Assembly (NCBI GenBank): GCA_044342325.1
Contig: JBIIPZ010000021.1
Location: forward strand, 1 to 50,399
Direction: 5' to 3'
DNA length: 50,399 nt
Source: Terrimicrobiaceae bacterium
GTDB taxonomy: Bacteria > Verrucomicrobiota > Verrucomicrobiia > Chthoniobacterales > Terrimicrobiaceae
Position numbers and translations under genes: made by a program. Of the stretch, positions 16,869-49,142 are shown one piece after another. The notes under the pieces were generated by a model, which was not told where the DNA came from, searched no databases, and worked only from the letters and a program-made list of their open reading frames with translations. Positions within the stretch are counted from its first letter, which is position 1; each line of letters begins with the position of its first letter.

Positions 16869-17414
16869 ATGCTCCCCCCGAGCCGCCCACAGCAAGCCAA
16901 ATCCAAGACGCAAGCCCTGCTCACCAAGGCCCGCGTGGATGATGCCGTGGCGCTGGTGGGCATTCGCGGCTACTACCGAGACAGCATGGGAGTCCCAGGC
17001 GAGAACGACCGTGGCATCTACGACGACGCTATTTTCCTCGTCTCCCCAAACGCCTACGCGACCTTTAACGCCAACACCGATCCCTCGATCCGCCGCAAAG
17101 GCATCGCTGTTCTAAAGCCTGGCGTGCATCGCTACCGCAAGGGCAAGCATGGCCTCAGTAAGCCCGGCGGCGGCTATCCTGCCCTGCGCCCCGCGAACCC
17201 CGCCGAAGAACTCCCCGTGACCCGTGACGGCCAAGGCGACAGCATGGGCATCGCCATCAACATCCACAAAGGCGGCTATCGCACCACCAGCAGCGAAGGC
17301 TGCCAGACCATTTACCCCAGCCAGTGGGAGTCTTTCATTTCCCTGGTCTATTCCGAAATGGACCGCGCCGGGCAGAAGACAATCCCTTACCTACTCACCG
17401 AGGAAGAAGTATAA
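16869..17414 (+). CDS. Putative endolysin with L,D-transpeptidase (YkuD)-like His/Cys motif
   Basis: GIAINIHKGG...SSEGCQ motif, located directly after the holin and lipoprotein genes. Confidence 0.5.
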   Translation: MLPPSRPQQAKSKTQALLTKARVDDAVALVGIRGYYRDSMGVPGENDRGIYDDAIFLVSPNAYATFNANTDPSIRRKGIAVLKPGVHRYRKGKHGLSKPGGGYPALRPANPAEELPVTRDGQGDSMGIAINIHKGGYRTTSSEGCQTIYPSQWESFISLVYSEMDRAGQKTIPYLLTEEEV

Positions 17415-18424
17415 TGAAAACATCATGGAGTTCCATAGCCCGCGAGCAAGCGGACAAAGCCCACAAGACAGAAGTCGATGCGCTCAAAGCCAAGCTCGCT
17501 CAATACCAAGCCAGCGTTGAAAGCCTGGAAAAGCAACTCGGCATCGCGCTCTCGCTCGGCAAGACACGCATTCGCCCGCATCCGCTCTCGGTCTCGATGA
17601 ACGACAAGGCCGAAGCTGTCGCCATCGCGCTTGCCAGCGATTGGCATGTTGAGGAGACGGTTGAGGCGGCATCGGTCAACGGCCTCAACGAATACCGCCT
17701 GCCCATCGCCAAGACTCGCATCGAGAAATTTTTCTCCACCATCGCCCGCCTAACGGAGATCGAGCGCCACGGTGCCAAGATCGACGACCTCATCCTCTGG
17801 CTCGGCGGCGATTTGATGACCGGCATGATCCACGAAGAACTCGCCGAATCGAACAGCAAAACCCCCACGCAAGTCATCCTCTGGCTCCAAGACCGCCTCG
17901 CCGACGGCCTCGCCACCCTCAAGCCCCACTTCAAGCGAATCCTCATCCCCACCAGCTACGGCAACCACGGCCGCACCACCATCAAGCCCCGCCACGCCAC
18001 AGGTGCCGCGCACTCTTACGAGTGGCTTCTCTACAAAATCCTCGAAGGCCGCTTCATCGATGACCAGCAGATCGAATTTCAAATCGCCGACAGCTACTTC
18101 AATTTCATGTCCGTCTTCGACCGCCGCCTGAGATTCCACCACGGCGACGGCCTCAAATACCAAGGCGGCATCGGCGGTCTCACCATCCCCACCGAAAAAG
18201 CCATCGCCAGTTGGAACAAATCCCCCAACCGCGCCGACCTCGACCTCTTCGGCCACTGGCACCAATACCAGCAATCCCGCACATGGCTCTGCAACGGCAG
18301 CCTCATCGGCTACAACGCCTACGCCCTCAGCGTTGTCAAGGCCGCCTTCGAGCCCCCCACGCAGACCTACTTCCTCCTCGATAAGAAGCGCGGACGCACC
18401 ATGACCTCCCCCATCTACCTATGA
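17414..18424 (+). CDS. Calcineurin-like metallophosphoesterase
   Basis: All five motifs present: SDWH, GGD, GNHG, HHGD, GHWH. N-terminal coiled coil. Confidence 0.85.
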   Translation: MKTSWSSIAREQADKAHKTEVDALKAKLAQYQASVESLEKQLGIALSLGKTRIRPHPLSVSMNDKAEAVAIALASDWHVEETVEAASVNGLNEYRLPIAKTRIEKFFSTIARLTEIERHGAKIDDLILWLGGDLMTGMIHEELAESNSKTPTQVILWLQDRLADGLATLKPHFKRILIPTSYGNHGRTTIKPRHATGAAHSYEWLLYKILEGRFIDDQQIEFQIADSYFNFMSVFDRRLRFHHGDGLKYQGGIGGLTIPTEKAIASWNKSPNRADLDLFGHWHQYQQSRTWLCNGSLIGYNAYALSVVKAAFEPPTQTYFLLDKKRGRTMTSPIYL

Positions 18425-20765: not shown

Positions 20766-22253
20766 ATGGCAACTCTCACCAAAGGCAAAACCTTCACCAA
20801 CGGCGAACTCGTCACCCCTGCCAACCTCCACCAGATGGTCGATGCCGCCACCGTCGCCAACATTGTCAACGCCGACATCGCCGCAAATGCCGCCATCGCC
20901 GACACGAAGCTGGCCACCATTTCCACGGCAAATAAAGTGTCCCAATCCGCCGTAACCAATCTCACCACCGACCTAGCAGGGAAAGCAGCGTCCATACACC
21001 AGCACGCTATTGCGGATACCACTGGGTTACAGACGGCGCTCGACGGCAAAGCGGCTGCAAGCCACAACCACGATGATCGCTATTACACGGAATCGGAGAT
21101 GAATACTCTGTTGGCAGGCAAGCAAGCGTCTGGAAGCTATGCACCTGCCAGCGGCATCGCGCCAAGCGCCATCACCGGCACGGCAGTTATCACGACTGAC
21201 TCGCGCCTGTCCGATGCCAGGACGCCGACCACGCACACGCACGATGATCGCTATTACACAGAGACAGAGATAGACACAAAACTCTCCGGCCTGCCTGTTT
21301 CTGGCCATACGCACACCATTGCACAAGTGACGGGCTTGCAAACGGCCCTTGATGGCAAGCAGGCGTCTGGCTCTTATGCCGCTGCTGCGCACACGCACGA
21401 CGACCGCTATTACACAGAGTCGGAGATGAATACTTTGCTTGCTGGTAAGCAAGCGTCTGGAAGCTACGCGCCAGCAACAGGTATTGCCGCTACTGCCATC
21501 ACAGGCACGGCGGTCATTACGACCGATTCCCGCCTGTCCGATGCCAGGACGCCGACCACGCACACGCACGATGATCGCTATTACACAGAGTCCGAGATGA
21601 ACACTCTGCTTGCCGGTAAGCAGGCGTCTGGAAGCTATGCCCCTGCAACGGGTATCGCGCCAAGCGCCATCACGGGAACGGCGGTGATTACGACTGATTC
21701 CCGCCTGTCCGATGCTAGGACGCCGATAGACTCGTCTGTATCATTTTCAAAACTTGTCCAAGCAGTTCAAGAAACATTGGTTCCAACTGGTTCCGTTGTG
21801 GCTTTTGCTTTTAATGCCTTCGCAGGCATCCCGGATGGCTGGATTGAATGTAATGGTTCTGCTGTGAGCAGATCGACTTATAGTAATCTTTATAGCAAAA
21901 TTGGAGTTTCTTATGGCAGCGGTGACGGAAGCACCACATTTAATCTGCCTGATCTTCGCGGATACTTTATTCGTGGCAGTGGGACTAACTCTGACGGAAC
22001 AGCTTCCGGGTCATTTGCAACGAAACAAAGCGATGATGTAAAGCCTCATAATCATCCCGTATCTTGGGCCTTTGGAAATTGCGTTTTAAATGTTCATGAG
22101 ACTCAAGGAGGCAGATCAACTGGGTCAGCTACGACTGTTACAGATATCAATGTATCTACTGGATTTCCTAGTGCTTCCATCGCAATACAAACTAATCTTG
22201 GCACAGAAACCCGTCCAAAAAACATCGCAATGATGTATTGCATCAAAACATGA
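20766..22253 (+). CDS. Tail fibre with 57-aa tandem repeats and C-terminal tail-collar domain
   Basis: HTHDDRYYTE and HTHTIAQVTGLQTALDGK repeats. Collar signature PDGWIECNGSAVSR..Y..L...IG..YG.GDGSTTFNLPDLRG.F.RG and terminal ETRPKNIAMMYCIK. Confidence 0.85.
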   Translation: MATLTKGKTFTNGELVTPANLHQMVDAATVANIVNADIAANAAIADTKLATISTANKVSQSAVTNLTTDLAGKAASIHQHAIADTTGLQTALDGKAAASHNHDDRYYTESEMNTLLAGKQASGSYAPASGIAPSAITGTAVITTDSRLSDARTPTTHTHDDRYYTETEIDTKLSGLPVSGHTHTIAQVTGLQTALDGKQASGSYAAAAHTHDDRYYTESEMNTLLAGKQASGSYAPATGIAATAITGTAVITTDSRLSDARTPTTHTHDDRYYTESEMNTLLAGKQASGSYAPATGIAPSAITGTAVITTDSRLSDARTPIDSSVSFSKLVQAVQETLVPTGSVVAFAFNAFAGIPDGWIECNGSAVSRSTYSNLYSKIGVSYGSGDGSTTFNLPDLRGYFIRGSGTNSDGTASGSFATKQSDDVKPHNHPVSWAFGNCVLNVHETQGGRSTGSATTVTDINVSTGFPSASIAIQTNLGTETRPKNIAMMYCIKT

Positions 22254-22651
22254 CCGCGCCCGCCCCCACCATGCTCCGTCCCGAGCCCTACCACGCGACC
22301 AAGCTCGCCGTGCGCCGGTCTCCCTTGCACCGGTGGGGCGTCTTCGCCACGGCCCCCATCGCCAAGCACGAAGTGCTGGAAGAGGCCCCCTACGCCTGCG
22401 TGCCCAAGAAGCAACTTGCCAAAGCCCCCGCCTGCGAGACCTACAGCTACTACCTCGACGACGCCACCAGCATCATCGGCTTCGGCCTCGCCCCCCTCTA
22501 CAACCACCACGACACCCCCAACGCCTGCCATGAGATCGACCAGGTAAACGAACTCATGCGGCACTACGCCCTGCGCGACATCGCCGCAGGCGAAGAGATC
22601 ACCCTCAACTACGGCGCAGAAAACGCCAAGCACTTCTTAGAAAAGGACTAA
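22250..22651 (+). CDS. SET-domain protein (putative protein methyltransferase)
   Basis: SET motifs: SPLHRWGVFA..PI...E, LYNHH..PNA and ALRDIAAGEEITLNYG. ATGA-coupled to the tail fibre gene. Confidence 0.85.
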   Translation: MTAPAPTMLRPEPYHATKLAVRRSPLHRWGVFATAPIAKHEVLEEAPYACVPKKQLAKAPACETYSYYLDDATSIIGFGLAPLYNHHDTPNACHEIDQVNELMRHYALRDIAAGEEITLNYGAENAKHFLEKD

Positions 22652-22655
22652 CCCT

Positions 22656-25355
22656 ATGGCAATGAACATGAGCAACAGCGGCGGAGGAGGGGGAATGTCC
22701 GGCGGAGGAGGAGGCGGTGGTGGCGCGATGAGCGCAGCCATGTCCGACAACAACATGGGCGGCAACAACGCCATGTCAACAGGGTCAGCAATGTCCAACG
22801 CCATGAGCGGCGGCAACAACGCCATGTCCGGCGGAGGAATGTCCACCGGCGGCATGGGCATGGGCGGCATGAGCGCCCCGCCTGCCCCGCAGCAGCGCAG
22901 CCTCGCCGACGAGATGGCCGCGATCTCAGGCTACGCCCAAGCAAACGCCCAAGCGCAAGCCAACACCACCGTTGATACCGCAGACCGCCTCAGCGACCAA
23001 GCCATTGAAAACACCGGCGACATTGCGCAACGCCTCCAAGACAGCACCTACACCGCAGCGGCAAACCAAAACATCCGCGACGCCGGAACCTCGGCCGCCC
23101 AACTCGGGCAAAGCTACAACCAAGTCGGCCAGACTGCCGACCGCGTAGCGGCCTACAACGACCCCGCCCAAGCCCGGCTGAACCAGCTGGCCCTCGGCCA
23201 GCTCTATCGGCCCGACCAGATTTCGTCCCAAAATGTCGCCGCCGACCAGGCGCAAGGTGCTCGCGTAGCCAACATAGGCAACACGCAAACCGCCCAAGTA
23301 GGACCCGTGGTCGATGCTCAAGCAGCCCAAGCCCGAGCTGCTCGCATGGGCCAAGTGCAAAATGTCCAAGGTCCAGCAGGCTATGCTGCCGATCAGGTCC
23401 AGGCGCAACGCATCCTGTCCTCGCAGATGGGCCCAGTTGCCGATGTGCAAGCCGCCCAAGCTGGGCAAGTCAATGATGTCCGCGCCCAGCGTGTCCGCGC
23501 CGCCCAAGGCATCGCCTCGCAAATGGGCCCGGTTGATAATGTCCAAGCCGCTACCACCGGCGCAATCGAGCGCGTCGGTGGAACGCAAGTCGGCGCGGTG
23601 GATCCGATGGAAGCCGCCCGCGTCCGCCGAGTCCAAGACATCCAAGCGCAGAATGTCCGTGCCAGCGCCGCCGAGCGGGGCTTGATGAATGAAGCCCGTG
23701 GCAATGGGCTCCTCGGCCAACTCGAAGGCCAAGCCAGCAACGACCTCGCCCTCGGCCGCTCCCTCTCAGCCGAGCAGAGCCGCGACGCCATCCAATCTTC
23801 CCGCGCCGCCTCATCCGCCCGTGGCCTCGGCCTCGGCCAATCCGCCATGGCCGCCGAGCTTCTCAACCGCGACCGCTTCGCCACCGCCAGGGAAAACGAA
23901 CGCCGCACCTTTGCTGGCAATGTCCTCGGCCAAGGCACTGCTCTTCGCACCTCAGCCAACCAAGCCTACGCCCAGCGGCAGGACGCCAACGCAGGCCGCT
24001 CCCTCCAAGCCGACAGCACAAACCAATCTGTGGCTCAAGCCCGCGCCATGCAGAATGCGCAGTTTGCCCAGCAGGCCCGGCTCACCGATAACCAAAACGC
24101 CCAGCAGCGAGTTCTCGCCGAGGCCGGTTACGCCCAGCAAGCCGGACTCTCGAACCAAGATTTCAGCTTCCGCGCCAATTCCCAAGACGCGCAGTTTGCC
24201 CAGCAAGCCAACCTTGCCAACCAGCAGGCCGCACTCCAACAAGGCCAATACAACGCCAGCAACCAGCAGGCCATGGCATTGGCCAACCTGCAAAACCGCC
24301 AGCAGGCCAACCTCTCAAACCAAGACGCCTTCCTGCGTGCAGGACTTGCCAATCAATCCTCGGGCCTCCAACTCGGTCTCACCAACGCCCAGCTCCAGCA
24401 GCAAGCAGCCCTGCAAAATCAGCAGACCGCTTACAATACCGGCCAAGCCAACGCCCAGCTTGCCCAGCAAGCCGCCCTCGCCAACCAGAGCACAGGTCTC
24501 CAAGCCTCTCAACTCAACCAAGCCGCCAACGCCCGCGCCGCAGAGTTTCAGCAACAAGGCGGCCTTCAAGCCGCCCTCGCTAATCAACAAGTTGGATTTC
24601 AAACGAACCAATTCAACGCAGCCAACCGCCAAGCCGCCAACCTCGCCAACGCAGGCTACGCTCAACAGGCAGGTCTCGCCAACCAAGCCACCGCCCTCCA
24701 GCTCGGCCAGACCAACGCCCAGCTCCGGCAACAAGGCTACCTCACTGATAATTCCAACGCGCAGCAGGCCGCCATGGCCGATGCAGGCTACGCGCAGCAG
24801 GCCAACCTCGCCAACCAATCGGCCAACCTCAACGCCGCCCAATACAACAGCAGCCAAAACCTCGCCGCCCAGCAGGCGAACCAATCGGCAAACTACAACG
24901 CCAACTACGCAAACCAAAATTTCCTGCAAGGCGTCGCCAGTCAGAACTTCAACCAATTTTCGGGCCAGCAAAGCATGCTCGGCAGCCTCTACGGCCAGCA
25001 GGCAGGCATCGCCCAAAACCAATACGCCAACAATCTCGGCCTCGCCCAAGCCAATGTCGCGCTCGACCCCTACCAACGCGCCCTCGGATCCAACATCCCC
25101 ATAGCCAGCCAAGGCAACGCCGCTTCGATGATCGGCCAAGCCTACGGCAACACCATGAACTACGGCAGCGACCTCTTTAATACAAACACCAACATGCAGG
25201 CCAGCATCTACAACAGCTTCCAAAACAACCAAGCCGCTCTGCGCGGAGCGCAAATCCAAGGGGCCGCCACCGCAGGCGCATCGCAAAACTCCATGATGGG
25301 CTCCGGCATGGCCGCTGGCGGCATGGTCCTCGGCATGACCGCTCTTGCTATTTAA
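22656..25355 (+). CDS. Putative ejection/DNA-pilot protein, Gln/Ala/Asn-rich with hendecad repeats
   Basis: 899 aa with a Gly/Met-rich N-terminus, 11-residue periodicity and a hydrophobic Gly-rich C-terminus. Lies after the tail genes. Confidence 0.65.
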   Translation: MAMNMSNSGGGGGMSGGGGGGGGAMSAAMSDNNMGGNNAMSTGSAMSNAMSGGNNAMSGGGMSTGGMGMGGMSAPPAPQQRSLADEMAAISGYAQANAQAQANTTVDTADRLSDQAIENTGDIAQRLQDSTYTAAANQNIRDAGTSAAQLGQSYNQVGQTADRVAAYNDPAQARLNQLALGQLYRPDQISSQNVAADQAQGARVANIGNTQTAQVGPVVDAQAAQARAARMGQVQNVQGPAGYAADQVQAQRILSSQMGPVADVQAAQAGQVNDVRAQRVRAAQGIASQMGPVDNVQAATTGAIERVGGTQVGAVDPMEAARVRRVQDIQAQNVRASAAERGLMNEARGNGLLGQLEGQASNDLALGRSLSAEQSRDAIQSSRAASSARGLGLGQSAMAAELLNRDRFATARENERRTFAGNVLGQGTALRTSANQAYAQRQDANAGRSLQADSTNQSVAQARAMQNAQFAQQARLTDNQNAQQRVLAEAGYAQQAGLSNQDFSFRANSQDAQFAQQANLANQQAALQQGQYNASNQQAMALANLQNRQQANLSNQDAFLRAGLANQSSGLQLGLTNAQLQQQAALQNQQTAYNTGQANAQLAQQAALANQSTGLQASQLNQAANARAAEFQQQGGLQAALANQQVGFQTNQFNAANRQAANLANAGYAQQAGLANQATALQLGQTNAQLRQQGYLTDNSNAQQAAMADAGYAQQANLANQSANLNAAQYNSSQNLAAQQANQSANYNANYANQNFLQGVASQNFNQFSGQQSMLGSLYGQQAGIAQNQYANNLGLAQANVALDPYQRALGSNIPIASQGNAASMIGQAYGNTMNYGSDLFNTNTNMQASIYNSFQNNQAALRGAQIQGAATAGASQNSMMGSGMAAGGMVLGMTALAI

Positions 25356-26449
25356 TGAACCAACACCTGCAAAACCTCGTCGATGAAACCCTGACCCGTG
25401 CCGAGTATTGGCTGCGGGAATTTCGCAACCCCGTCGTCCTCTGGAGCGGAGGCAAGGACAGCACCGCCATGCTGCACATCCTCATCTTCAAGCTCGGCGT
25501 GCGGCTCCCCTGCGTGCAATGGCGCGAACCCCGCTTCCGCCATCGCTACGCCCACAGCGACCTGCTCGCCCGCGAGTGGGACTTGACCCTCTTCGACTAT
25601 GCTCCCGGCCGCATCGCCATCCAGGATGGGTTCGACATCGAGACCGGCCAACCCCGTTTCGATTTCCTCAAGTATTACCAATGGGGCCACCACAGCGCCC
25701 TCGTCCTCAGCCTCGGCACCGAGCACCCCAAGGAAGGCGAGCCCTACCTGTGCGGCCTCACCGATGTCCTCCAGCGCCCCACCGGCTCTTTTAACTGGCC
25801 GTGGGACGCCGCATTCCACGGGCAGAAAAGCGCCGATGTCGATCTGATCAAAGGCGGCGTGCCACTCGCCCAGGATGTGCGCCGCGTGGATGACAGCCCC
25901 ACCCAGCTTTTCCTCATGCGGCATTGGACCGACGACGACATCTTCGACTACCTCGAAGCCGAAGGCGTCCCCATGGACCCCACCCGCTACGACCGCGCCT
26001 CCGGCAAGTGGGGCCACAAGCAGGACAAATCCCACAACGCCGACTACTACCCCATCTGCTGGAACTGCGTGAACCGCCACCTCACCGCCCCCGTGTGGTG
26101 CCCCAAGCTCCGCAGCGAGGTGAACAGCATCGCCCACCTCGCCCCCTACGAAGACAACTCCATCCCAGAGCAAGGCTTCAAACCCACATGGAATCCCAAT
26201 ACGACTGTCAACGGTGTGGCGCATGTTGCTCGCACCGTTGGAGCTGGCCCGTGCTCCGGCGCGACCGCTCCGACGCCACCGGCATCCCTGCCGAATACCT
26301 CCGCACCGACTACCCCCTGCTCAAGACCGACCCCTGCGGACGCTGCATCGCCCTCCGTGGCGAGGTGGGCCGAGGAGTCGCCTGCGCAATATATCATGCT
26401 CGCCCATCCGCCTGCCGGTCCTTCCAGCCTGGCAGCCCACTCTGCATAG
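25355..26449 (+). CDS. PAPS-reductase-like PP-loop (adenine nucleotide alpha-hydrolase) protein
   Basis: VVLWSGGKDSTAML PP-loop, WT..DI..YL motif and a late CWNC...C cluster. The last ~87 codons are low-complexity and overlap the next gene. Confidence 0.75.
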   Translation: MNQHLQNLVDETLTRAEYWLREFRNPVVLWSGGKDSTAMLHILIFKLGVRLPCVQWREPRFRHRYAHSDLLAREWDLTLFDYAPGRIAIQDGFDIETGQPRFDFLKYYQWGHHSALVLSLGTEHPKEGEPYLCGLTDVLQRPTGSFNWPWDAAFHGQKSADVDLIKGGVPLAQDVRRVDDSPTQLFLMRHWTDDDIFDYLEAEGVPMDPTRYDRASGKWGHKQDKSHNADYYPICWNCVNRHLTAPVWCPKLRSEVNSIAHLAPYEDNSIPEQGFKPTWNPNTTVNGVAHVARTVGAGPCSGATAPTPPASLPNTSAPTTPCSRPTPADAASPSVARWAEESPAQYIMLAHPPAGPSSLAAHSA

Positions 26450-26481
26450 AAGCCCGCCAATCCAAAAACCTCCCCACCTAA
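26188..26481 (+). CDS. YkgJ-family CxxCxxCC cysteine-cluster protein
   Basis: CQRCGACC...RCIAL.G.....CAIYHARP.ACRSF signature. Confidence 0.8.
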   Translation: MESQYDCQRCGACCSHRWSWPVLRRDRSDATGIPAEYLRTDYPLLKTDPCGRCIALRGEVGRGVACAIYHARPSACRSFQPGSPLCIEARQSKNLPT

Positions 26482-26485
26482 TCCC

Positions 26486-27013
26486 ATGCCATACAACCCC
26501 ACCGTCAACGACCGATCTGGAGAAATCCTCGCAAATGCCACAGCCAACGCAGCTCAAATCCGCGCCCAAGGCATGATGGCTATGGGCGAAGGAATAAGCG
26601 ACGGCCTCGCCGCAATCGGCGGCGGACTATCTCAAGGCATGACGAAATCCCAAGAAAACCGGATCGCCTCGGACGGTGCCAACGCCAAGTTCGACATGCT
26701 CAAAGGCATGAAAAAAACCGATGACCAACCCCTTTTCAGTCAAGAAACCATCGACAAATTCGACACCATGCCGCTCGGTAAGCGCCAAGCCATTGTGCAG
26801 ACAGCAGAGGCTATTATGGACGACGACCTAAAGCGCTGGATGTATCAGACCCAATACAACGCCCAAGCCAACCGCGTTAACGCGAATATACTCGCCCAGC
26901 AACCGGCCGCAAACCAAGTCCCCATAAACACAAACACTGCCCCCGCAGCGCAACCGCAGGCCAATCCTCCAGCGGCTCCACAAGATTGGCGCAGCATGGT
27001 TCCTCAGCGCTAA
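26486..27013 (+). CDS. Putative ejection (internal virion) protein
   Basis: 175 aa, Ala/Gln/Gly-rich helical sequence, in the ejection module. Confidence 0.5.
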   Translation: MPYNPTVNDRSGEILANATANAAQIRAQGMMAMGEGISDGLAAIGGGLSQGMTKSQENRIASDGANAKFDMLKGMKKTDDQPLFSQETIDKFDTMPLGKRQAIVQTAEAIMDDDLKRWMYQTQYNAQANRVNANILAQQPAANQVPINTNTAPAAQPQANPPAAPQDWRSMVPQR

Positions 27014-27018
27014 TCATT

Positions 27019-27984
27019 ATGACACTGACACCGCAACCCAATCCCACCGCCGAGGACATGGCAGACTTCGTAACGCCCGTTGCAGAAATTCCCGCCCCAC
27101 CGCCACAGCGCCAATCCAAGGGCCTGTCTTTCGATTTCAATGGCCTCATCGGTCGTTTACAGACCGAGGGCTTTGATTCTCTTTCTCGCCCGCAGCAAGA
27201 GCTGCTTTACCATCTCAAGGACAATCCAGACCTCGAAATGAGCCCCGAGCAGATGGCCATGTTCGTAACCGAGACCGACAAAAGACTCCGCGAGCAGGCT
27301 TCTCCAGAAGCTCAAGCACGACTTGCTAACACCCAGCTTGATGTTGCCACAAAGAAAACTGCACTTACTACTGCCGCAAAAGAATCCCAAGAAGACGCGA
27401 AAAAAACATACCAACGCGCATCCAATATGGTCTGGCTCCTTGATAATTTGAGGGGAGGAAAACGCGGAGAGGTTGCAGAAAAAAATGAAAAATGGAGGCC
27501 GCGCGTCGGATCAGTCGATGGTCGTTGGCCATCCTTACTTTCATCCGAAGAGACACTTGGTTGGAATGCTGACTTTAACAGCTTAAAGGGCATGATTAAT
27601 TTGACCGAGGCACAGGCCAACCGAGGGCAGGGTTCGCTGACTGAAGGCGAGCGCACACTTATGGCGCAAGCTGCATCTTTGGGACTAGATCAAGTCCGCG
27701 ACGAGGCAGGATTTAATAAAGCCTTTGAGCGCATGTATGACATGGCCGCCGAAGCTCAACAGTCAAACATGAAAAAACTTTCGGGCGCCGACAAGGCCGA
27801 CCCTTCATCCACGCCCGCACAACAACCCGCAACCACCGTCCCAGCCGCAGCACCGCAACCCCAGCCGCAATTCCGCAGCAAAGAAGAAATCGTCCAAGCC
27901 GTGAACGCCGGCAAACTCACCCGCGAGCAAGGAGTTTCGATCCTCCGCTCCCAGTTCAACAACGATTTCCGATCTGGCCAATGA
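27019..27984 (+). CDS. Putative ejection (internal virion) protein
   Basis: 321 aa, helical, with a GQGSLTEGER motif. ATGA-coupled to the next gene. Confidence 0.55.
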   Translation: MTLTPQPNPTAEDMADFVTPVAEIPAPPPQRQSKGLSFDFNGLIGRLQTEGFDSLSRPQQELLYHLKDNPDLEMSPEQMAMFVTETDKRLREQASPEAQARLANTQLDVATKKTALTTAAKESQEDAKKTYQRASNMVWLLDNLRGGKRGEVAEKNEKWRPRVGSVDGRWPSLLSSEETLGWNADFNSLKGMINLTEAQANRGQGSLTEGERTLMAQAASLGLDQVRDEAGFNKAFERMYDMAAEAQQSNMKKLSGADKADPSSTPAQQPATTVPAAAPQPQPQFRSKEEIVQAVNAGKLTREQGVSILRSQFNNDFRSGQ

Positions 27985-30900
27985 GCGCACTTCTTGACCC
28001 AGAAGCCTGGTTAGACGAGCAACTTGCCACCACAAAGCCCACGGTCGTTTCCAATAAAGAAATGACCTCCGATGAACTTGATGCTCTGGCAGCCGCCGAG
28101 CTGCCGGTGCAGGACGCCCCCATCCCCCCGAACGCCTCTACGGCAATCGCCGCAAGCGGAGCGCCTGAACAGACAGGCTCACCCGGACTGATCACCGGGG
28201 AGGGGGCTCTTCCTGCAAGCGACGATCCACGCATGGATGCCGAAACATGGCTCGACAACGCCATCGCCACAACTCCCACCCCCCGCGCAGTCAAGCTCCC
28301 AAACGGCCGCTCCAGCTACGGCAACGACTTTCTCAAGACCATCGACACCACCAAGCTCACGCCCGAAGAATATCTTTCCATTGAGCCAGATGTGGAGGTC
28401 GTCAAAGGAATGCTGCACAATCCCCAATACACTCCTTCCTTTGAGGAGTGGCAGGATTTGAGCGCTATCGAAAAGCGCCTCGTTGACGAGGGCAAAATCA
28501 AAAAACCCGGCAGCCTTGAGATGGTCGGCAATGCCGTAGGCGGCCTCGTCGTCCTCGCCAGCGACTTCATCTACAACACCGCCATCGATGCAGATGGCTC
28601 CATCACCCGACCAGGCGAAACTATTGACCGCATGCAGCAAGGCACATGGCGCGTTGCTCCCGCCGAAACCCTCGCCCGATCCCCAGCCACCATGGTCTCC
28701 GCTGGTAAGCTCGCTGGCGCTACTTTGCAATATATCGGCCAGATGATCGATGCTGATTGGAACGAACGCCCACAATATGTCGTGAACGAAACCGGCGAAC
28801 TTCTCGCCAGCAGTTCACAGCTTCGCCTCCCGCCCGCAGATATTCTTGCCAAGCAATATGCTGCTCGCGGTCAAACCGTGCGCCCTATCAACGAACAAGA
28901 AGTCCAGCAGTTCGACTACGACCGCTTCGTCCAACGCCGCCAGACACAGAAACTCGAGGATGATGCGCTAAACAATACCACCGCACCCACCGAGTTTATC
29001 ACCATGCTTCTCACTGGGCGCAACCAAGCGGAAAAGCCCATCCAATCGCAAGCACAGGTGGGCGCCACCGCAGTAGACCCATTAGCTATAGGTCCTGTTG
29101 CTTCCGCAGGCACCCGATGGGGCCTTTCAGCTTTTGGGAAAAAAGCCAGCGCCAAGATGCTCAGTGGACTGGAAAAAGCCAGCGGCGGCATCGCCCGCGC
29201 CAATGATGCACTTTTAGACCGCTTCGCCAAAACCGTCTCCGATCAGACCGGAGTCGAACTCAGCACATGGCAGAAAGGAATCGAGGCCACTAAAGATGTT
29301 GCCAAGCGCTCTGTCATTCCAGCATTGGGAGGAGCAGGAAACACAATTTTGGGAGGCGATCCATTTGTTTCCACCGCGATAGCCAGTTCCTACGGCCTCT
29401 ATAAAGGTGGCCTCTTCGTCCTCCGCCGCATCGAAACAGGCTCCCGCGCAGGCAAGACCATCCTTCGCGAATCTGCCGATGCCACAAATGGCCTTGACCA
29501 AGTCGCCCGCCTTGCCGTCGCAGCCAATCCCGCAGTCCCTACCGCAGTCCGCGAAGTATTGGAGCGCCCATCCAACTTCATCCCTCTGGAAAGCACTCCT
29601 GCCCGCATCGCTGCCAACCCTGCCTTCGGCCCCACCACTCGCGCTGTAGCAGATCGCCTTTCAAATCCCCTCGTTGTCCAAGCAGTCCGCAATACCGCCG
29701 CACTCGCCAAAGGCTCTGCCAAAGGAGCCATCGTCAACGCCCCCTTCGCCTACATGTCAGCAAATATGGGCGACCAAGAAGGTGCTGCTGGAGCTATCGG
29801 CTCCGGCCTTGCCTTTGGTGCCGCAGGTGCCGCATTTGAGCGTGTCGCCGGAGTGCGCGACCGTCGCTACCAACAAGCTGTAGGCGACATCGGCCGCATG
29901 CTCGTCGATGTGGAACTCGTCGGCGGCGATGTAAATCACCTCGTCAAAACCCGCGACATGCAGGGACTCGCCGATCTCGCCGCCATCCAAGGCTACTACC
30001 GCAACGGCTTTGATTTCGTCCCGCTCAACAACGCCGATTACAACGACAATCGCCGCGTCAACGGCCAGAAAGACATGGTCTCGCCAAACAAGAAAGGCAC
30101 CGCAGGATATTTTGTCCAGACGGTCCCAGATGGTGGAAAGCCCATCATCTACATGAATCTCGACGCCACCAACCGCAACCCCCTCCCGCACGAGATCGGC
30201 CACCTCATCACCGCAGGCGGCTTGGAGAATCCTCAGAAGATCGCAGCCCGCGCCTGGGTGGATAAAACCTACGGCACCGATGGCATTAAAGCTCGCGGCG
30301 AAGAATACGCCCGCACCCTCATCCAAGCCCGCGCCGATGCCGCCGCCCGCGCCGAAGGCAAACAACCCAAGCCCATCGACATCACTCCCGACATGCTCGC
30401 CGCCGAGATGGATAGCCTCGGACAAGACGGCCTTGTTCGCGGCGATATCACCACCATGGATTGGGCACGCGACGAAATCTTTGCCGAGACCTTCGCCACC
30501 AACGCCGCCACCATGGATTGGTCTTCCATCCGCAGGGGCAATCCCGCCGGCGGAAACTTCCTCACATTCGCCGAAGGCATCCTCGGCGCCCAAGCTCGCG
30601 GCCTCATGGCAGCAGGCGTCCGCATCGATCCTCAAACAGGCACTCCTCTTGACACCCCCGCCAGCCTTTTCAACGAAAACCCCGTCCTCGCCGCCGACCC
30701 CCAAATCATCAAGCAACTCGAGACCTACAGTAAAAACTACCGCTCCTACCTCCTCGCCCCCGAGCAGTCAAAACCACGCGGCGCTCGCGTCGCCCCAAGC
30801 GGCCGCGCCCAAGACATCGCCAACACCGGCCTCGTCAAAAACCACGCCAACGACCAAGGAGGGCAGGAAAACCTTTTTCAAGTCACAGACCCCACCGGCA

Positions 30901-31745
30901 ACACACGCGCCAAAGAACAGAGTGAACTCAATGCCGAGCAAAAACTCCGCTCCGAGCAGGTAGGGAATCTTTTCAAAACCAAAAAACTCAACTCCCCGGC
31001 AGACCCCACCGTCAGTTTGAAAAAACGCACGGACGGAAAGACCGAGGTATTCGGCCGCCGCTTGCCACAGAATTTCTTTTTCTCAAATTCCTTTGGCCGC
31101 CACATCCGCGATTTTGCCCGCGTCTTCGAGGAAGCCATGGACTCTGGTGAGACGCTCAACACAAGCTATTTTGCCCTCCTCACCCGCTCCGACACTGGCG
31201 CTGTTCGCGTCAAAGACCTCGGCAACACCGCCCGCATCGACCGCGAGGTCGTGCCGTTCCAGTGGTTCGTATCCAAACAAAACAACATCCTTGCCGAAGT
31301 CCTCGATGTCACAAAATTCCGCAACCGCTTCAACCGCGCCGTTGCCGATGGCGACGAACCCATCGCACGCCTCTTCGATAACAAATGGGACAACATTGAG
31401 CCCACATTCAAGAAGCTGCTCGACAACCACCGCAACAACCTCCCTGGCGAGTCCGGCCTCGGCGGAAGCGCCGTCGAGAAAAAGGATGTCCTCAACGCCC
31501 TCATCGGTATCGCCACAAACGAAAACCGCTCCCGCAACCCCTACAACGGCCGCTACGGCAGCGGCAGCGCTATTGAAAGATTCCGCCTCGACCGCATCAA
31601 CGACTCCACTAAATCCGGCCGCACAGGCTACCAATTCGACTACCCCAAAGCCGCAGGTAACGCCCTCCCCGACAAGCCAGCCCCCATGCCGGACTTGTCA
31701 AGAGACCTGCCAACGCCACAAAGCCAAGCCATGCCTGCCGAATAG
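27981..31745 (+). CDS. Large internal virion / polyvalent-type protein with HExxH motif
   Basis: 1254 aa, last gene of the prophage. Gly/Ala-rich hydrophobic segments, PHEIGHLI and a downstream DEIFAE. Confidence 0.6.
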   Translation: MSALLDPEAWLDEQLATTKPTVVSNKEMTSDELDALAAAELPVQDAPIPPNASTAIAASGAPEQTGSPGLITGEGALPASDDPRMDAETWLDNAIATTPTPRAVKLPNGRSSYGNDFLKTIDTTKLTPEEYLSIEPDVEVVKGMLHNPQYTPSFEEWQDLSAIEKRLVDEGKIKKPGSLEMVGNAVGGLVVLASDFIYNTAIDADGSITRPGETIDRMQQGTWRVAPAETLARSPATMVSAGKLAGATLQYIGQMIDADWNERPQYVVNETGELLASSSQLRLPPADILAKQYAARGQTVRPINEQEVQQFDYDRFVQRRQTQKLEDDALNNTTAPTEFITMLLTGRNQAEKPIQSQAQVGATAVDPLAIGPVASAGTRWGLSAFGKKASAKMLSGLEKASGGIARANDALLDRFAKTVSDQTGVELSTWQKGIEATKDVAKRSVIPALGGAGNTILGGDPFVSTAIASSYGLYKGGLFVLRRIETGSRAGKTILRESADATNGLDQVARLAVAANPAVPTAVREVLERPSNFIPLESTPARIAANPAFGPTTRAVADRLSNPLVVQAVRNTAALAKGSAKGAIVNAPFAYMSANMGDQEGAAGAIGSGLAFGAAGAAFERVAGVRDRRYQQAVGDIGRMLVDVELVGGDVNHLVKTRDMQGLADLAAIQGYYRNGFDFVPLNNADYNDNRRVNGQKDMVSPNKKGTAGYFVQTVPDGGKPIIYMNLDATNRNPLPHEIGHLITAGGLENPQKIAARAWVDKTYGTDGIKARGEEYARTLIQARADAAARAEGKQPKPIDITPDMLAAEMDSLGQDGLVRGDITTMDWARDEIFAETFATNAATMDWSSIRRGNPAGGNFLTFAEGILGAQARGLMAAGVRIDPQTGTPLDTPASLFNENPVLAADPQIIKQLETYSKNYRSYLLAPEQSKPRGARVAPSGRAQDIANTGLVKNHANDQGGQENLFQVTDPTGNTRAKEQSELNAEQKLRSEQVGNLFKTKKLNSPADPTVSLKKRTDGKTEVFGRRLPQNFFFSNSFGRHIRDFARVFEEAMDSGETLNTSYFALLTRSDTGAVRVKDLGNTARIDREVVPFQWFVSKQNNILAEVLDVTKFRNRFNRAVADGDEPIARLFDNKWDNIEPTFKKLLDNHRNNLPGESGLGGSAVEKKDVLNALIGIATNENRSRNPYNGRYGSGSAIERFRLDRINDSTKSGRTGYQFDYPKAAGNALPDKPAPMPDLSRDLPTPQSQAMPAE

Positions 31746-31861
31746 TCGCACCAAAAAACGGTGTGAATTTTCTGTGGTCACAACCCCCCAAACCTCTCCG
31801 CCTCCGCCTGCGGGTCGCCCGAAAATTGTAAAATTTTACAGGTCGAAAAAAATTGAAAAAA

Positions 31862-31992
31862 TGTCAATGCACCAAAATCATTGACACTTTTACTAGGCGG
31901 TAAGTTGGAGTCAAAACCCACCTTTTTGGCCTTTTTCCCTCTACTGAACGAGTGACGAAAATCCAAAAAGTGTCAATCATTGACATTGACAC
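31862..31992. repeat. Cluster of TGTCAAT/ATTGACA motifs next to the att core (possible integrase arm or Xis sites)
   Basis: Copies at 31862, 31880, 31971, 31979 and 31985. ATTGACACTTTT and AAAAGTGTCAAT form an inverted pair. Confidence 0.5.
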
Positions 31993-32003
31993 AAGGGAAA
32001 CAG

Positions 32004-32031
32004 GTGGGTTCGAATCCCACCTCCTCCGCCA
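32004..32031 (+). pseudogene. 3' fragment of tRNA-Ser (prophage att core)
   Basis: T-arm GTGGG-TTCGAAT-CCCAC, acceptor strand CTCCTCC, discriminator G and CCA. No 5' half upstream. Confidence 0.8.
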
Positions 32032-32263
32032 CAATCCGCGAAGCCCTATGTTTGGAGGGTCAGCGTCCTCGCCTGACCCAAATTTCAAACACGGCTAGAT
32101 CACAAAGTCACGGGGCCGAGACCATCTTCGCAACAAATCCAGCATCCCACGAGAGCGCGTCTCTACGGGAATCCACCTGACCGCTTGCGCGATTTTCTCC
32201 GTCTCTCCAACGCGAACAAAAATGTTGAGTGAAGTTCCAGCGGCATTCAGTCTGTCGGTCGAT

Positions 32264-47933: not shown

Positions 47934-48062
47934 CTACGCCCTTAAACATTCGCTCTTTGACTTCAAATATTCGTGGGCAAAATCTGCTCCATTTTCCCAA
48001 GCCAATGTGTGTCCCTCTAATCTGAACCTTTTAAAATAATCAAGATTCTTTAGAGGCTTGCA
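47934..48062 (-). pseudogene. C-terminal remnant of a DUF2442-like gene
   Basis: PLKNLDYFKRFRLEGHTLAWENGADFAHEYL matches the DUF2442 C-terminal pattern. The N-terminal half is replaced by intron sequence. Confidence 0.6.
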
Positions 48063-48522
48063 GAGGTTCGTGGACGAGAAGATCGAAGGGTGGCTGGGGC
48101 TGAAAATCAACCGAGAGAAGACGCGGATCATAAACCTTCGCCAAGAAGGGCAAGTCCTCGACTTCCTTGGGTTCAGCTTCCGATACGACCGCTCGATTTA
48201 TGACGAGGGCAGTCGTTACTGGAATATGTATCCCTCAAAGAAATCGATCGCGCGAGAGCGTGAGAAACTGCGAGGGATGATCAACCGGAAACAAAACCAC
48301 ACGCCATTGCCTGAATTGATCGGACGCCTGAACCGCCACCTCAAAGGGTGGGCCAACTACTATCGGGTCGGCTACAGTCGGCGAGCCTTCAAGGAAATCA
48401 ACTGGTTCGTGCACCAGCGCCTATGGCGGCACCTGCGACGGCGCAGTCAACGCCGCTGGCGATCTGGACCTGACACATCCATCTACTCACAAGTCATTAA
48501 AATGGGGCTAGTCCAACTGTGA
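48058..48522 (+). pseudogene. Truncated group II intron reverse transcriptase/maturase (RT6-7 + X domain only)
   Basis: LGLKINREKTRI, DFLGFSF and LN..LKGWANYY motifs. No YADD or upstream RT domains. Confidence 0.88.
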
Positions 48523-48545
48523 AAGCTTCGCACAAAACACCCTGC

Positions 48546-48650
<105 letters not shown>

Positions 48651-49142
48651 CCCTCTCCCCGGCGCTCACAGAGACGCCGCGCTGCAGCGCGCAGTCCTTG
48701 GAGGGTCGACCTTTGCCTTGCTCGCGCCCTGCTCGCTACGCCCTTCGGGCCATCTGCGATGTGCTTCCTCCGCCCAACCCGGGTCTTCGGTTGGCTTGAC
48801 CCCAATACCAACTCGGAAACCGCCGACACACGCCCGGAAATCACCCCTCCAAATAATCGCCCAGACTATGCCCAGCCCATTCTGAATTCACCATTCTGTC
48901 AACTCTGTTCACCGACGCATTCCGCTCCACTCTGGCAAACTTTATCTTTTTTAGGCGCTCGCCGATTTTGTCCAAAATCGACTCCCTCGCATTTTCTCAA
49001 TAACCGCCCTCCTGCCGCCTTCGTTGCTGTTCCGCTATCACTCCACTGCTTTTAAATAAAAACTCGTTTAACGTCGTTCTGGAGCCCTGTTTTTTGGACC
49101 GATTCTCAAAAAATCCTTGTTTCGCTCCGATATCCTCCCGAG

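Follow-up and report, generated by a model that had tools for sequence, protein, structure and literature searches.

A virus-specific PP-loop enzyme of the PAPS-reductase superfamily encoded among virion-type genes in the late operon of a Terrimicrobiaceae prophage

Gene set of the late operon and its PP-loop enzyme

We analyzed a cassette of genes in the late operon of a prophage carried by Terrimicrobiaceae bacterium (GenBank contig JBIIPZ010000021.1). The window, i.e., the whole stretch of DNA that was analyzed, is one entire contig of 50,399 nucleotides, in which the prophage occupies positions 1 to ~31.8 kb and the first host gene starts at 32222. At the center of the cassette is a gene for a PP-loop ATP-pyrophosphatase-like enzyme (25355..26449), which lies on the forward strand, as do the other genes of this operon. 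It is preceded by a tail fibre gene (20766..22253, 495 aa), by SET, a gene for a minimal SET-domain lysine methyltransferase (22250..22651, 133 aa), and by g899, a gene whose 899-aa product (22656..25355) is of the ejection type as judged by composition and synteny. It is followed by a gene for a YkgJ-type CxxCxxCC protein (97 aa, 26188..26481, with the ATG at 26188) and by g175, which codes for a downstream virion/ejection-type protein of 175 aa (26486..27013). The genes are tightly packed: SET overlaps the fibre gene in an ATGA, a 4-nt gap separates SET from g899, the PP-loop gene overlaps g899 in a TAATG, and g175 begins after another 4-nt gap. This gene set and these junctions were as described in a previous reading that was made from the sequence alone, and we found that the arrangement recurs in related viral contigs. 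The fibre gene, which matches Pfam Collar (3e-21) and PTR as well as PHROG tail fibre families, forms the upstream edge of a variable slot. The codon style of the SET, PP-loop and YkgJ genes fits the phage and not the host, again in agreement with the sequence-only reading: the fraction of C at third codon positions is 0.66, 0.64 and 0.59, respectively, compared with 0.49–0.58 in phage structural genes and 0.29–0.44 in host genes.

The hub of the cassette is a PP-loop enzyme that belongs to the PAPS-reductase superfamily (PAPS, 3'-phosphoadenosine 5'-phosphosulfate) and is specific to viruses. Its SGGKDS loop is invariant in the family, as are four cysteines (C133, C235, C238 and C249, according to the homologue alignment), the last three of which form a conserved C-terminal C-x2-C-x10-C-P-K module. 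The window protein alone scored 19.9 bits against the Pfam PAPS_reduct family (PF01507), which is below the cut-off of 22.5 and involves the N-terminal 20 residues only. However, PF01507 is carried by relatives at 55–88% identity, and distant members score 30–58 bits. The family profile (A1) matched solved structures of CysD (1zun_A, 1e-11) and CysH (9e-4), and the best Foldseek matches of an AlphaFold2 model (predicted local distance difference test, pLDDT, of 79) were CysD, the PAPS domain of FAD synthase, APS/PAPS reductases, TtuA and TilS (E 3e-6 to 1e-3, TM 0.37–0.45). Membership in the superfamily is assigned because of the CysD profile match, the fold, and the relatives that pass the Pfam cut-off. 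Thus, the PAPS-reductase-like label given to the protein from sequence alone is appropriate for the family, although the window protein by itself does not reach the Pfam threshold. Superfamily-wide, PP-loop enzymes adenylate their substrates.

Within this superfamily, the window protein is distinct from the enzymes of sulfur assimilation, as had been proposed when a cysH-type role was set aside. It scored 33.5 bits with the NCBIfam CysD model (NF003587, cut-off 195), and no CysH model matched it; P0143, a distant member of the family, reached 34.1 bits against a cut-off of 154 in the NCBIfam CysH/CysD test. A parallel with DndC and SspD, which had also been drawn, failed the family tests: searches with PADLOC and NCBIfam gave no DndC, BrxP or QueC match for the window protein. 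PADLOC returned only fragments at E ~0.003–0.008 for two distant members, and the DndC model TIGR03183 gave 15.3 bits (cut-off 290), for cluster P0148 only. An exhaustive HMMER search detected 293 clusters at E<=1e-3, mostly proteins of 260–290 aa with 30–40% identity, and in a protein-atlas look-up by language model the three best clusters were 95–100% viral. When P0130 and P0143 were compared with phage records, only Bacillus-phage 'PAPS reductases' with 23–27% identity were found, and these occurred in other contexts. In one member of the family (P0183, 670 aa), the sequence is split by an intein that has a LAGLIDADG domain.

To place the gene in its context, we collected viral stretches from IMG/VR that encode relatives (355 for the close clade, defined by 57–100% PP-loop identity, and 216 for the distant set) and examined the best 80 of each. 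In the close clade, SET was counted in 73 loci and YkgJ in 68 evaluable loci; the distant list was ranked against a SET fusion protein and is therefore biased towards SET. A homologue of the g899 C-terminal domain ends at the start of the PP-loop gene in 57 of the 80 distant loci, and a g175 homologue comes after the PP-loop gene, or after the SET or YkgJ gene that accompanies it, in 38 of the 80 distant loci and in most close ones. Neighboring genes match the internal-virion PHROGs 342, 511 and 2534. Even in very divergent phages, the PP-loop gene keeps its place between two conserved genes of the virion type, and the suggestion that the cassette belongs to a late operon conserved together with ejection-protein genes was borne out by synteny in both close and distant loci.

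The PP-loop enzyme also occurs in fusions. SET–PP-loop fusions were detected in two representative clusters (P0148 and P0155), PP-loop–TPR–GT9 glycosyltransferase fusions of 649–659 aa in P0204 and P0257, and a PP-loop–Peptidase_S74 fusion in P0217. In the distant set, a SET gene immediately follows the PP-loop gene in 16 loci and immediately precedes it in 8, i.e., the two adjoin in 24 of 80. Jackhmmer searches started from the YkgJ and SET of the window did not extend to the distant loci, which were reached from a second SET seed. A common origin of the window SET and these adjacent SETs was considered and not accepted, the similarity being at the superfamily level only (E 0.003). The link between SET and PP-loop genes was borne out by these fusions and abutting genes, but the three families do not form a fixed trio. 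The idea of a three-gene system did not hold, as SET is present in only 10 of the 73 close relatives, YkgJ in 1 of the 80 loci outside the clade, and the PP-loop gene often stands alone. In one distant locus (L129:7074-7826), a further neighbor related to S-adenosylmethionine, a protein of 250 aa in which an S-adenosylmethionine decarboxylase domain was recognized (2.3e-13), is encoded 330 nt downstream of the PP-loop gene.

YkgJ, the variable slot and the lysine content of g899-like proteins

The YkgJ protein matched Pfam PF03692 with 35.3 bits (1.9e-8; cut-off 23), and this was the only family returned at E<=0.01, with no match to DUF3109. It contains the motif CQRCGACC and has 8 invariant cysteines (alignment A3); no solved relatives were found by sequence at E<=1. 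Its gene follows the PP-loop gene in all 68 close-clade loci that have enough downstream DNA, and within the clade of the window YkgJ is an obligate neighbor of the PP-loop gene. The single distant locus with YkgJ (L157) retains this pairing, with a PP-loop protein 38% identical and a YkgJ protein 58% identical to those of the window.

The YkgJ gene starts inside the PP-loop gene, and the sequence-only reading had described it as nested. The overlap of 262 nt is present, but it is not conserved and the PP-loop frame within it is not selected. PP-loop homologues vary from 277 to 370 aa and share residues 1 to ~280 only (25355-26200 in the window); the extra tails (26201-26449 in the window) are the YkgJ gene read in another frame. 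Among 23 distinct sequences of the overlap, we counted 59 changes at YkgJ codon position 3, which is position 2 of the tail codons, versus 34 and 23 at the other two positions. Because the changes peak at YkgJ third positions, the YkgJ frame alone is under selection, and the long overlap results from a missing stop codon in GC-rich DNA. The 262-nt overlap is an unselected read-through tail, neither conserved nor a designed nesting. A frameshift fusion of the two proteins was also considered and rejected, as the tail lengths vary and the tail codons are unselected; low-GC relatives, in which the PP-loop protein ends at ~278 aa and the YkgJ start overlaps it by 13 nt (L099), likewise count against it.

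Complex prediction gives weak support to the possibility that the PP-loop protein and YkgJ form a complex. Three runs scored 0.05, 0.43 and 0.55 (median 0.43; best control 0.00), with at least 73% of contacts in agreement and a partner pLDDT of at least 72. Of 157 solved complexes, 116 attained the mark used for such predictions, as did 2 of 215 mismatched pairs. At scores of 0.60 or lower, only 18 of the 157 solved complexes passed together with both mismatches, and a pass in this range is wrong more often than not, except where the guess was plausible to begin with.

The window SET scored 51 bits with Pfam SET (2.1e-13; cut-off 22.4 bits), and its best solved relative is vSET of PBCV-1 (3.3e-13, full length). 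The sequences NHHDTPN and EEITLNY (NH..PN and EEIT..Y; SAM-binding, i.e., S-adenosylmethionine-binding, and catalytic), which correspond to the motifs NHxxxPN and ExxxxY, align with vSET. SET occupies the slot that separates the fibre gene from the g899-like gene, and this slot is variable. Sixty-six small open reading frames (ORFs) were found there in the 73 loci, of which nine are SET and 52 belong to one family of ~116–121 aa (for example, L010:2528-2893 and L066:4958-5308, with 50 others). This family had no Pfam match and no meaningful solved relative by sequence. Its model (pLDDT 89) resembles almost only GNAT N-acyltransferases, with Foldseek E of 0.3–1 and VIA-align Z of 5–7.1, which weakly suggests a GNAT-like family; we treat this as a lead, not as proof.

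The g899 protein has an unusual composition, as it contains no lysine, cysteine, histidine or tryptophan in 899 residues. It is rich in Gln, Asn, Ala and Gly (Gln plus Asn, 26%), and 34 Met are present overall. The N-terminus is rich in Gly, Met and Ser, with GGG, AMS and GMS repeats, and the conserved C-terminal domain ends in a hydrophobic G/A/M tail. The protein matched no Pfam or PHROG family, and hence it has no Peptidase_S74 domain. The lysine content of g899-like proteins follows the gene in the slot. In the 10 SET-bearing loci, these proteins (668–899 aa) have 0–2 lysines and G/M/S-rich N-termini, whereas in the 63 SET-less loci they have 1–33 lysines; the lysine density is 0.08% beside SET versus 2.0% without it. 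One SET-linked protein (L065) has no lysine in 810 residues at only 51% identity to that of the window. Beside the GNAT-like gene, the proteins begin with MGGGGGGSKPKK, MGKKKKSKQ or similar sequences and have 1–33 lysines. Such polybasic N-termini, of the MG(G)nSKPKK type, are found in the proteins encoded after the GNAT-like slot gene, and in the close clade the last 250 residues of the GNAT-linked proteins contain almost none of these lysines. The gene in the slot thus varies together with the N-terminal part of g899, which is the part that bears lysines. Because ~25% of the protein is Gln plus Asn, from which single-base changes to Lys are easy, the complete loss of lysine argues for selection.

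A second co-variation was seen in cultured phages. Bcep22, Eline and JC1 encode, in this order, an acyl-CoA N-acyltransferase, a virion protein, a 'PAPS reductase', further virion proteins and a giant DarB-like protein (Burkholderia Bcep22 gp69-gp70-gp73-gp74-gp75, JC1 gp63-gp69, and Ralstonia Eline gp49-gp53). The phages PEp14, SopranoGao, PBC5 and Skulduggery (L195-L198) are without the reductase, and all four have longer gp70-like proteins that end in a self-cleaving Peptidase_S74 chaperone domain. Of the three reductase-bearing phages, the Pfam scan covered Bcep22 and Eline, and neither has a Peptidase_S74 domain.

The remaining genes of the operon lie downstream of g175. They are g332 (26986..27984, start codon uncertain), which was taken from the ORF list and has relatives in close loci, and the giant last gene g1254 (27981..31745), also from the ORF list, which is presumed to encode an internal virion/ejection protein. 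Counterparts of g1254 in distant loci match phrog_342, 'internal virion protein with endolysin domain', and in another locus (L137) the gene after the g175-like gene matches phrog_2534, 'released from the phage upon host infection'. A terminator-like hairpin, identified by consensus scan only, is located right after g1254 (31746..31766, forward strand), and a scan for promoters and terminators inside the cassette gave nothing above shuffled sequences. Farther upstream, amid the structural operon and between tail-related genes, a 366-aa gene (17324-18424) matches a PHROG 'exonuclease' family (3e-34).

The phage part also encodes a helicase, a large terminase, an SU10-type major capsid protein and tail fibre genes, and the host part a FabV-type enoyl reductase, PurH and other proteins. 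A close relative is present in a Chthoniobacter metagenome-assembled genome, and the host looks Verrucomicrobia-like. Near-identical relatives are viral contigs of 41–43 kb, rated 100% complete, with terminal repeats in two; one of the relatives (G002) encodes an integrase, DnaB, DUF932, HTH regulators, terminase and a capsid protein. Comparison of the window cassette with 50,697 phage records gave no near-identical DNA match and no match to the PP-loop protein. ARAGORN detected no tRNA at the prophage edge. A hairpin at 31970-32022 on the reverse strand, just past the last phage gene, reads like a tRNA T-arm and acceptor end and is possibly what remains of a tRNA at the attachment site. In the host part, two short adjoining ORFs (48058-49055) resemble a relic of a group II intron protein: one of them has a GIIM group II intron maturase domain and matches a reverse-transcriptase PHROG.

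Possible functions of the cassette

Ejection (pilot) proteins of short-tailed phages are poorly understood, and we know of no enzyme that matures them. We tentatively favor, with somewhat less than even confidence, the possibility that the PP-loop enzyme, together with YkgJ, is an assembly-time maturation enzyme for the upstream g899-like ejection protein and does not serve sulfur assimilation. This is suggested by the locked synteny, by the partners and fusions (SET, TPR-glycosyltransferase and S74), by the two co-variations described above, and by the proteomics of JC1. In the accessible text of the JC1 report (PMC9144972), virion mass spectrometry lists the flanking gp64, gp67 and gp68, and the acetyltransferase gp63 and PAPS reductase gp65 are not among the proteins listed there.

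If so, the PP-loop enzyme would adenylate a carboxylate of the g899-like protein, most simply that of its C-terminal end, and the activated carboxylate might then be amidated, thiolated or ligated, to name some possible conversions. The four cysteines of the enzyme may bind an Fe-S or Zn center. YkgJ could be an Fe-S partner that feeds or shares a metal cluster, or else a FliB/DpdM-like SAM-dependent N-methylase, and SET might methylate lysines of other co-expressed proteins, the SET-linked g899 variant having purged its own. A more elaborate proposal, which we regard as doubtful, joins these steps into a small post-translational pathway acting on a single ejection protein. Here, the PP-loop/Fe-S enzyme would activate the C-terminal carboxylate in trans, as a counterpart of the self-cleaving S74 domain of the relatives, and yield an amide, a thiocarboxylate or an isopeptide link; the GNAT-like protein or SET, together with YkgJ, would cap or use amino groups, and the SET-linked variant would have been purged of lysines to avoid this chemistry.

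Several observations weigh against a role in maturation of the ejection protein. Tight gene order is common in phage late operons regardless of whether the products interact, and the PP-loop gene is in many loci accompanied by neither SET nor YkgJ, or by no enzyme partner at all. The window g899 has no lysine; therefore, SET cannot methylate it and must act on something else. The association between lysine content and SET (p = 5e-7) is descriptive only and is not an independent test, as the sequences are related and the genes are linked. The scores behind the GNAT-like fold call are middling, and the alternation of S74 and PP-loop genes rests on six cultured phages only. In addition, the PP-loop protein of Bcep22 (gp73) is only remote kin of the window family, with 33 bits to the distant profile A2 and an hhalign probability of 83% over 67 columns.

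The alternative that survives best, although we consider it unlikely, is that SET, the PP-loop enzyme and YkgJ are packaged effectors which are co-injected and act on host targets after infection, as vSET or T4 Alt do, and that g899 lost its lysines to escape SET. The full-length similarity of the window SET to vSET is in line with this, as are the location of the genes within the block of internal-virion genes and the fact that g899 is lysine-free only where SET is present. However, the listed virion proteins of JC1 speak for the flanking proteins and not for the acetyltransferase or the reductase (PMC9144972, as far as its accessible text goes), with the reservation that JC1 belongs to another clade and that low-copy proteins can be missed. 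An ATP-dependent and probably Fe-S-dependent enzyme would also be unusual in a capsid.

It is quite improbable, in our view, that the PP-loop enzyme and YkgJ alter phage DNA as a protection against restriction, either by Dnd/Ssp-like sulfur modification or by DpdM-like base methylation. DndC and SspD are PAPS-reductase-like PP-loop proteins, and late expression would suit a modification made before packaging; moreover, a YkgJ homologue, DpdM, is reported to methylate preQ1 in phage DNA (bioRxiv 10.1101/2023.04.13.536721). On the other hand, the window protein has no DndC, BrxP or QueC match (PADLOC, NCBIfam), and no TGT/DpdA was found in five of five complete relatives, which left the 7-deazaguanine DNA pathway, considered as a candidate, unsupported. 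Among the genes of the complete 43-kb relative G002 we found no polymerase, nucleotide-metabolism or other modification genes, and the fusions join protein-modifying modules (SET, TPR-GT9 and S74), not DNA-binding ones. Finally, that the genes are unlinked morons or auxiliary metabolic genes, with the PP-loop gene aiding host sulfate assimilation and SET and YkgJ as unrelated passengers, would fit the database name 'PAPS reductase', the facultative presence of SET (10/73) and the view of the JC1 authors, who, in the accessible text, call the acetyltransferase and the reductase morons and assign the reductase to sulfate reduction with no functional test (PMC9144972), but is very improbable given scores far below the CysD/CysH cut-offs with the ATP-binding SGGKDS loop kept, an almost wholly viral family with phage-like codon style, a gene position that stays between the same pair of structural genes at divergences of 30–40% identity, YkgJ adjoining the PP-loop gene in 68 of 68 loci, and the existence of SET fusions.

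The PP-loop family sits in the ejection block of hundreds of uncultured phages as well as of cultured Bcep22-like phages, under the name 'PAPS reductase'. Should the enzyme prove to modify a virion protein, the annotations of many phages and published tallies of 'auxiliary metabolic genes' would be wrong, and the PAPS-reductase superfamily would gain a new protein-directed chemistry. The pathway outlined above, if true, would define a new class of PAPS-reductase-like enzymes that act on proteins, and it would be the first description of an enzymatic route by which podophage ejection proteins mature. A lysine-free protein beside SET and the alternation of PP-loop and S74 genes are clean, testable signatures, and the cultured phages JC1, Bcep22 and Eline are available as analogues.

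Comparison with known systems

The window enzyme shares the adenine-nucleotide alpha-hydrolase fold with CysH, CysD and DndC, and its N-terminal PP-loop region resembles that of CysD. Its cysteine set is reminiscent of the Fe-S site in APS reductase and DndC. It differs in that the family is far below all curated cut-offs, has the C-x2-C-x10-C-P-K module, is viral, and is always found in a structural operon.

The window SET resembles PBCV-1 vSET (A612L) in its minimal size (133 versus 119 aa) and in its aligned motifs; vSET is packaged in PBCV-1 virions. In contrast to vSET, the window SET adjoins a lysine-free ejection protein, and histone H3 cannot be its target because the host is bacterial.

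The YkgJ protein may be compared with FliB and DpdM. The Cys motif of FliB, likened by its authors to PF03692, binds a [4Fe-4S] cluster essential for SAM-dependent lysine N-methylation (PMC8598068), and DpdM, described as a YkgJ homologue, methylates the aminomethyl amine of preQ1 (bioRxiv 10.1101/2023.04.13.536721). The window protein is also a Cys-rich, metal-type module. However, with 97 aa it is nearly the Cys module alone and has 8 invariant cysteines, whereas the motif of FliB is CX4CX3CC. Methyltransferase activity of so small a protein would be conjectural. Our literature searches found nothing joining CxxCxxCC with phage, YkgJ with PAPS reductase, or SET domain with phage and PAPS reductase, and among the papers listed for podovirus virions and ejection none mentioned 'PAPS reductase'.

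The closest parallel is with the Bcep22-like phages. Gene order is shared, and in both the PP-loop gene is preceded by the gene for a virion protein whose body is Q/A-rich and whose C-terminal tail is hydrophobic and of G/A/M type (window g899 ends in ...GASQNSMMGSGMAAGGMVLGMTALAI and the Bcep22 virion protein in ...AAQNSAGLMGGLGTIAGAGIMAF). As in the Bcep22-type cassettes, the PP-loop gene of the window, with its TAATG junction, follows a Q/A-rich, G/A/M-tailed virion protein without Peptidase_S74. The Eline virion protein begins with MGGKGGG, and N-termini of the MGGKG..K.P type are common to many g899-like proteins. BLASTP of g899 against Bcep22 gp70 revealed no direct similarity, and the likeness is confined to the compositionally biased termini. 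The PP-loop proteins of both kinds have four cysteines, which are arranged as CC+CxxC in the Bcep22 type and as C+CxxC+C in the window family. In addition, the window phage has an SU10-type capsid, which separates it from the Bcep22-like podophages.

The genes around the enzyme differ as well. The window has SET where the Bcep22-type cassette has the acyltransferase, with no N-acyltransferase gene directly before g899; the profile of the ~116–121-aa slot family did not match Bcep22 gp69. The Bcep22-type cassettes have no YkgJ, whereas the window has one. The 99-aa gene after the JC1 PAPS reductase (gp66) was considered as a YkgJ and rejected, as it contains no cysteine and did not match profile A3. 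The lysine-free 899-aa protein is a feature of the window, unlike in the Bcep22-type cassettes. The cassette had been put forward as a candidate new system. In this respect, the block of acyltransferase, virion protein and PAPS reductase is already annotated in Bcep22-like phages, and what distinguishes the window is its YkgJ, its SET and its lysine-free protein. The window cassette is a variant of a kind already annotated but unexplained in Bcep22-like phages, from which it differs in having a YkgJ partner, SET in the slot of the acyltransferase, and a lysine-free ejection protein.

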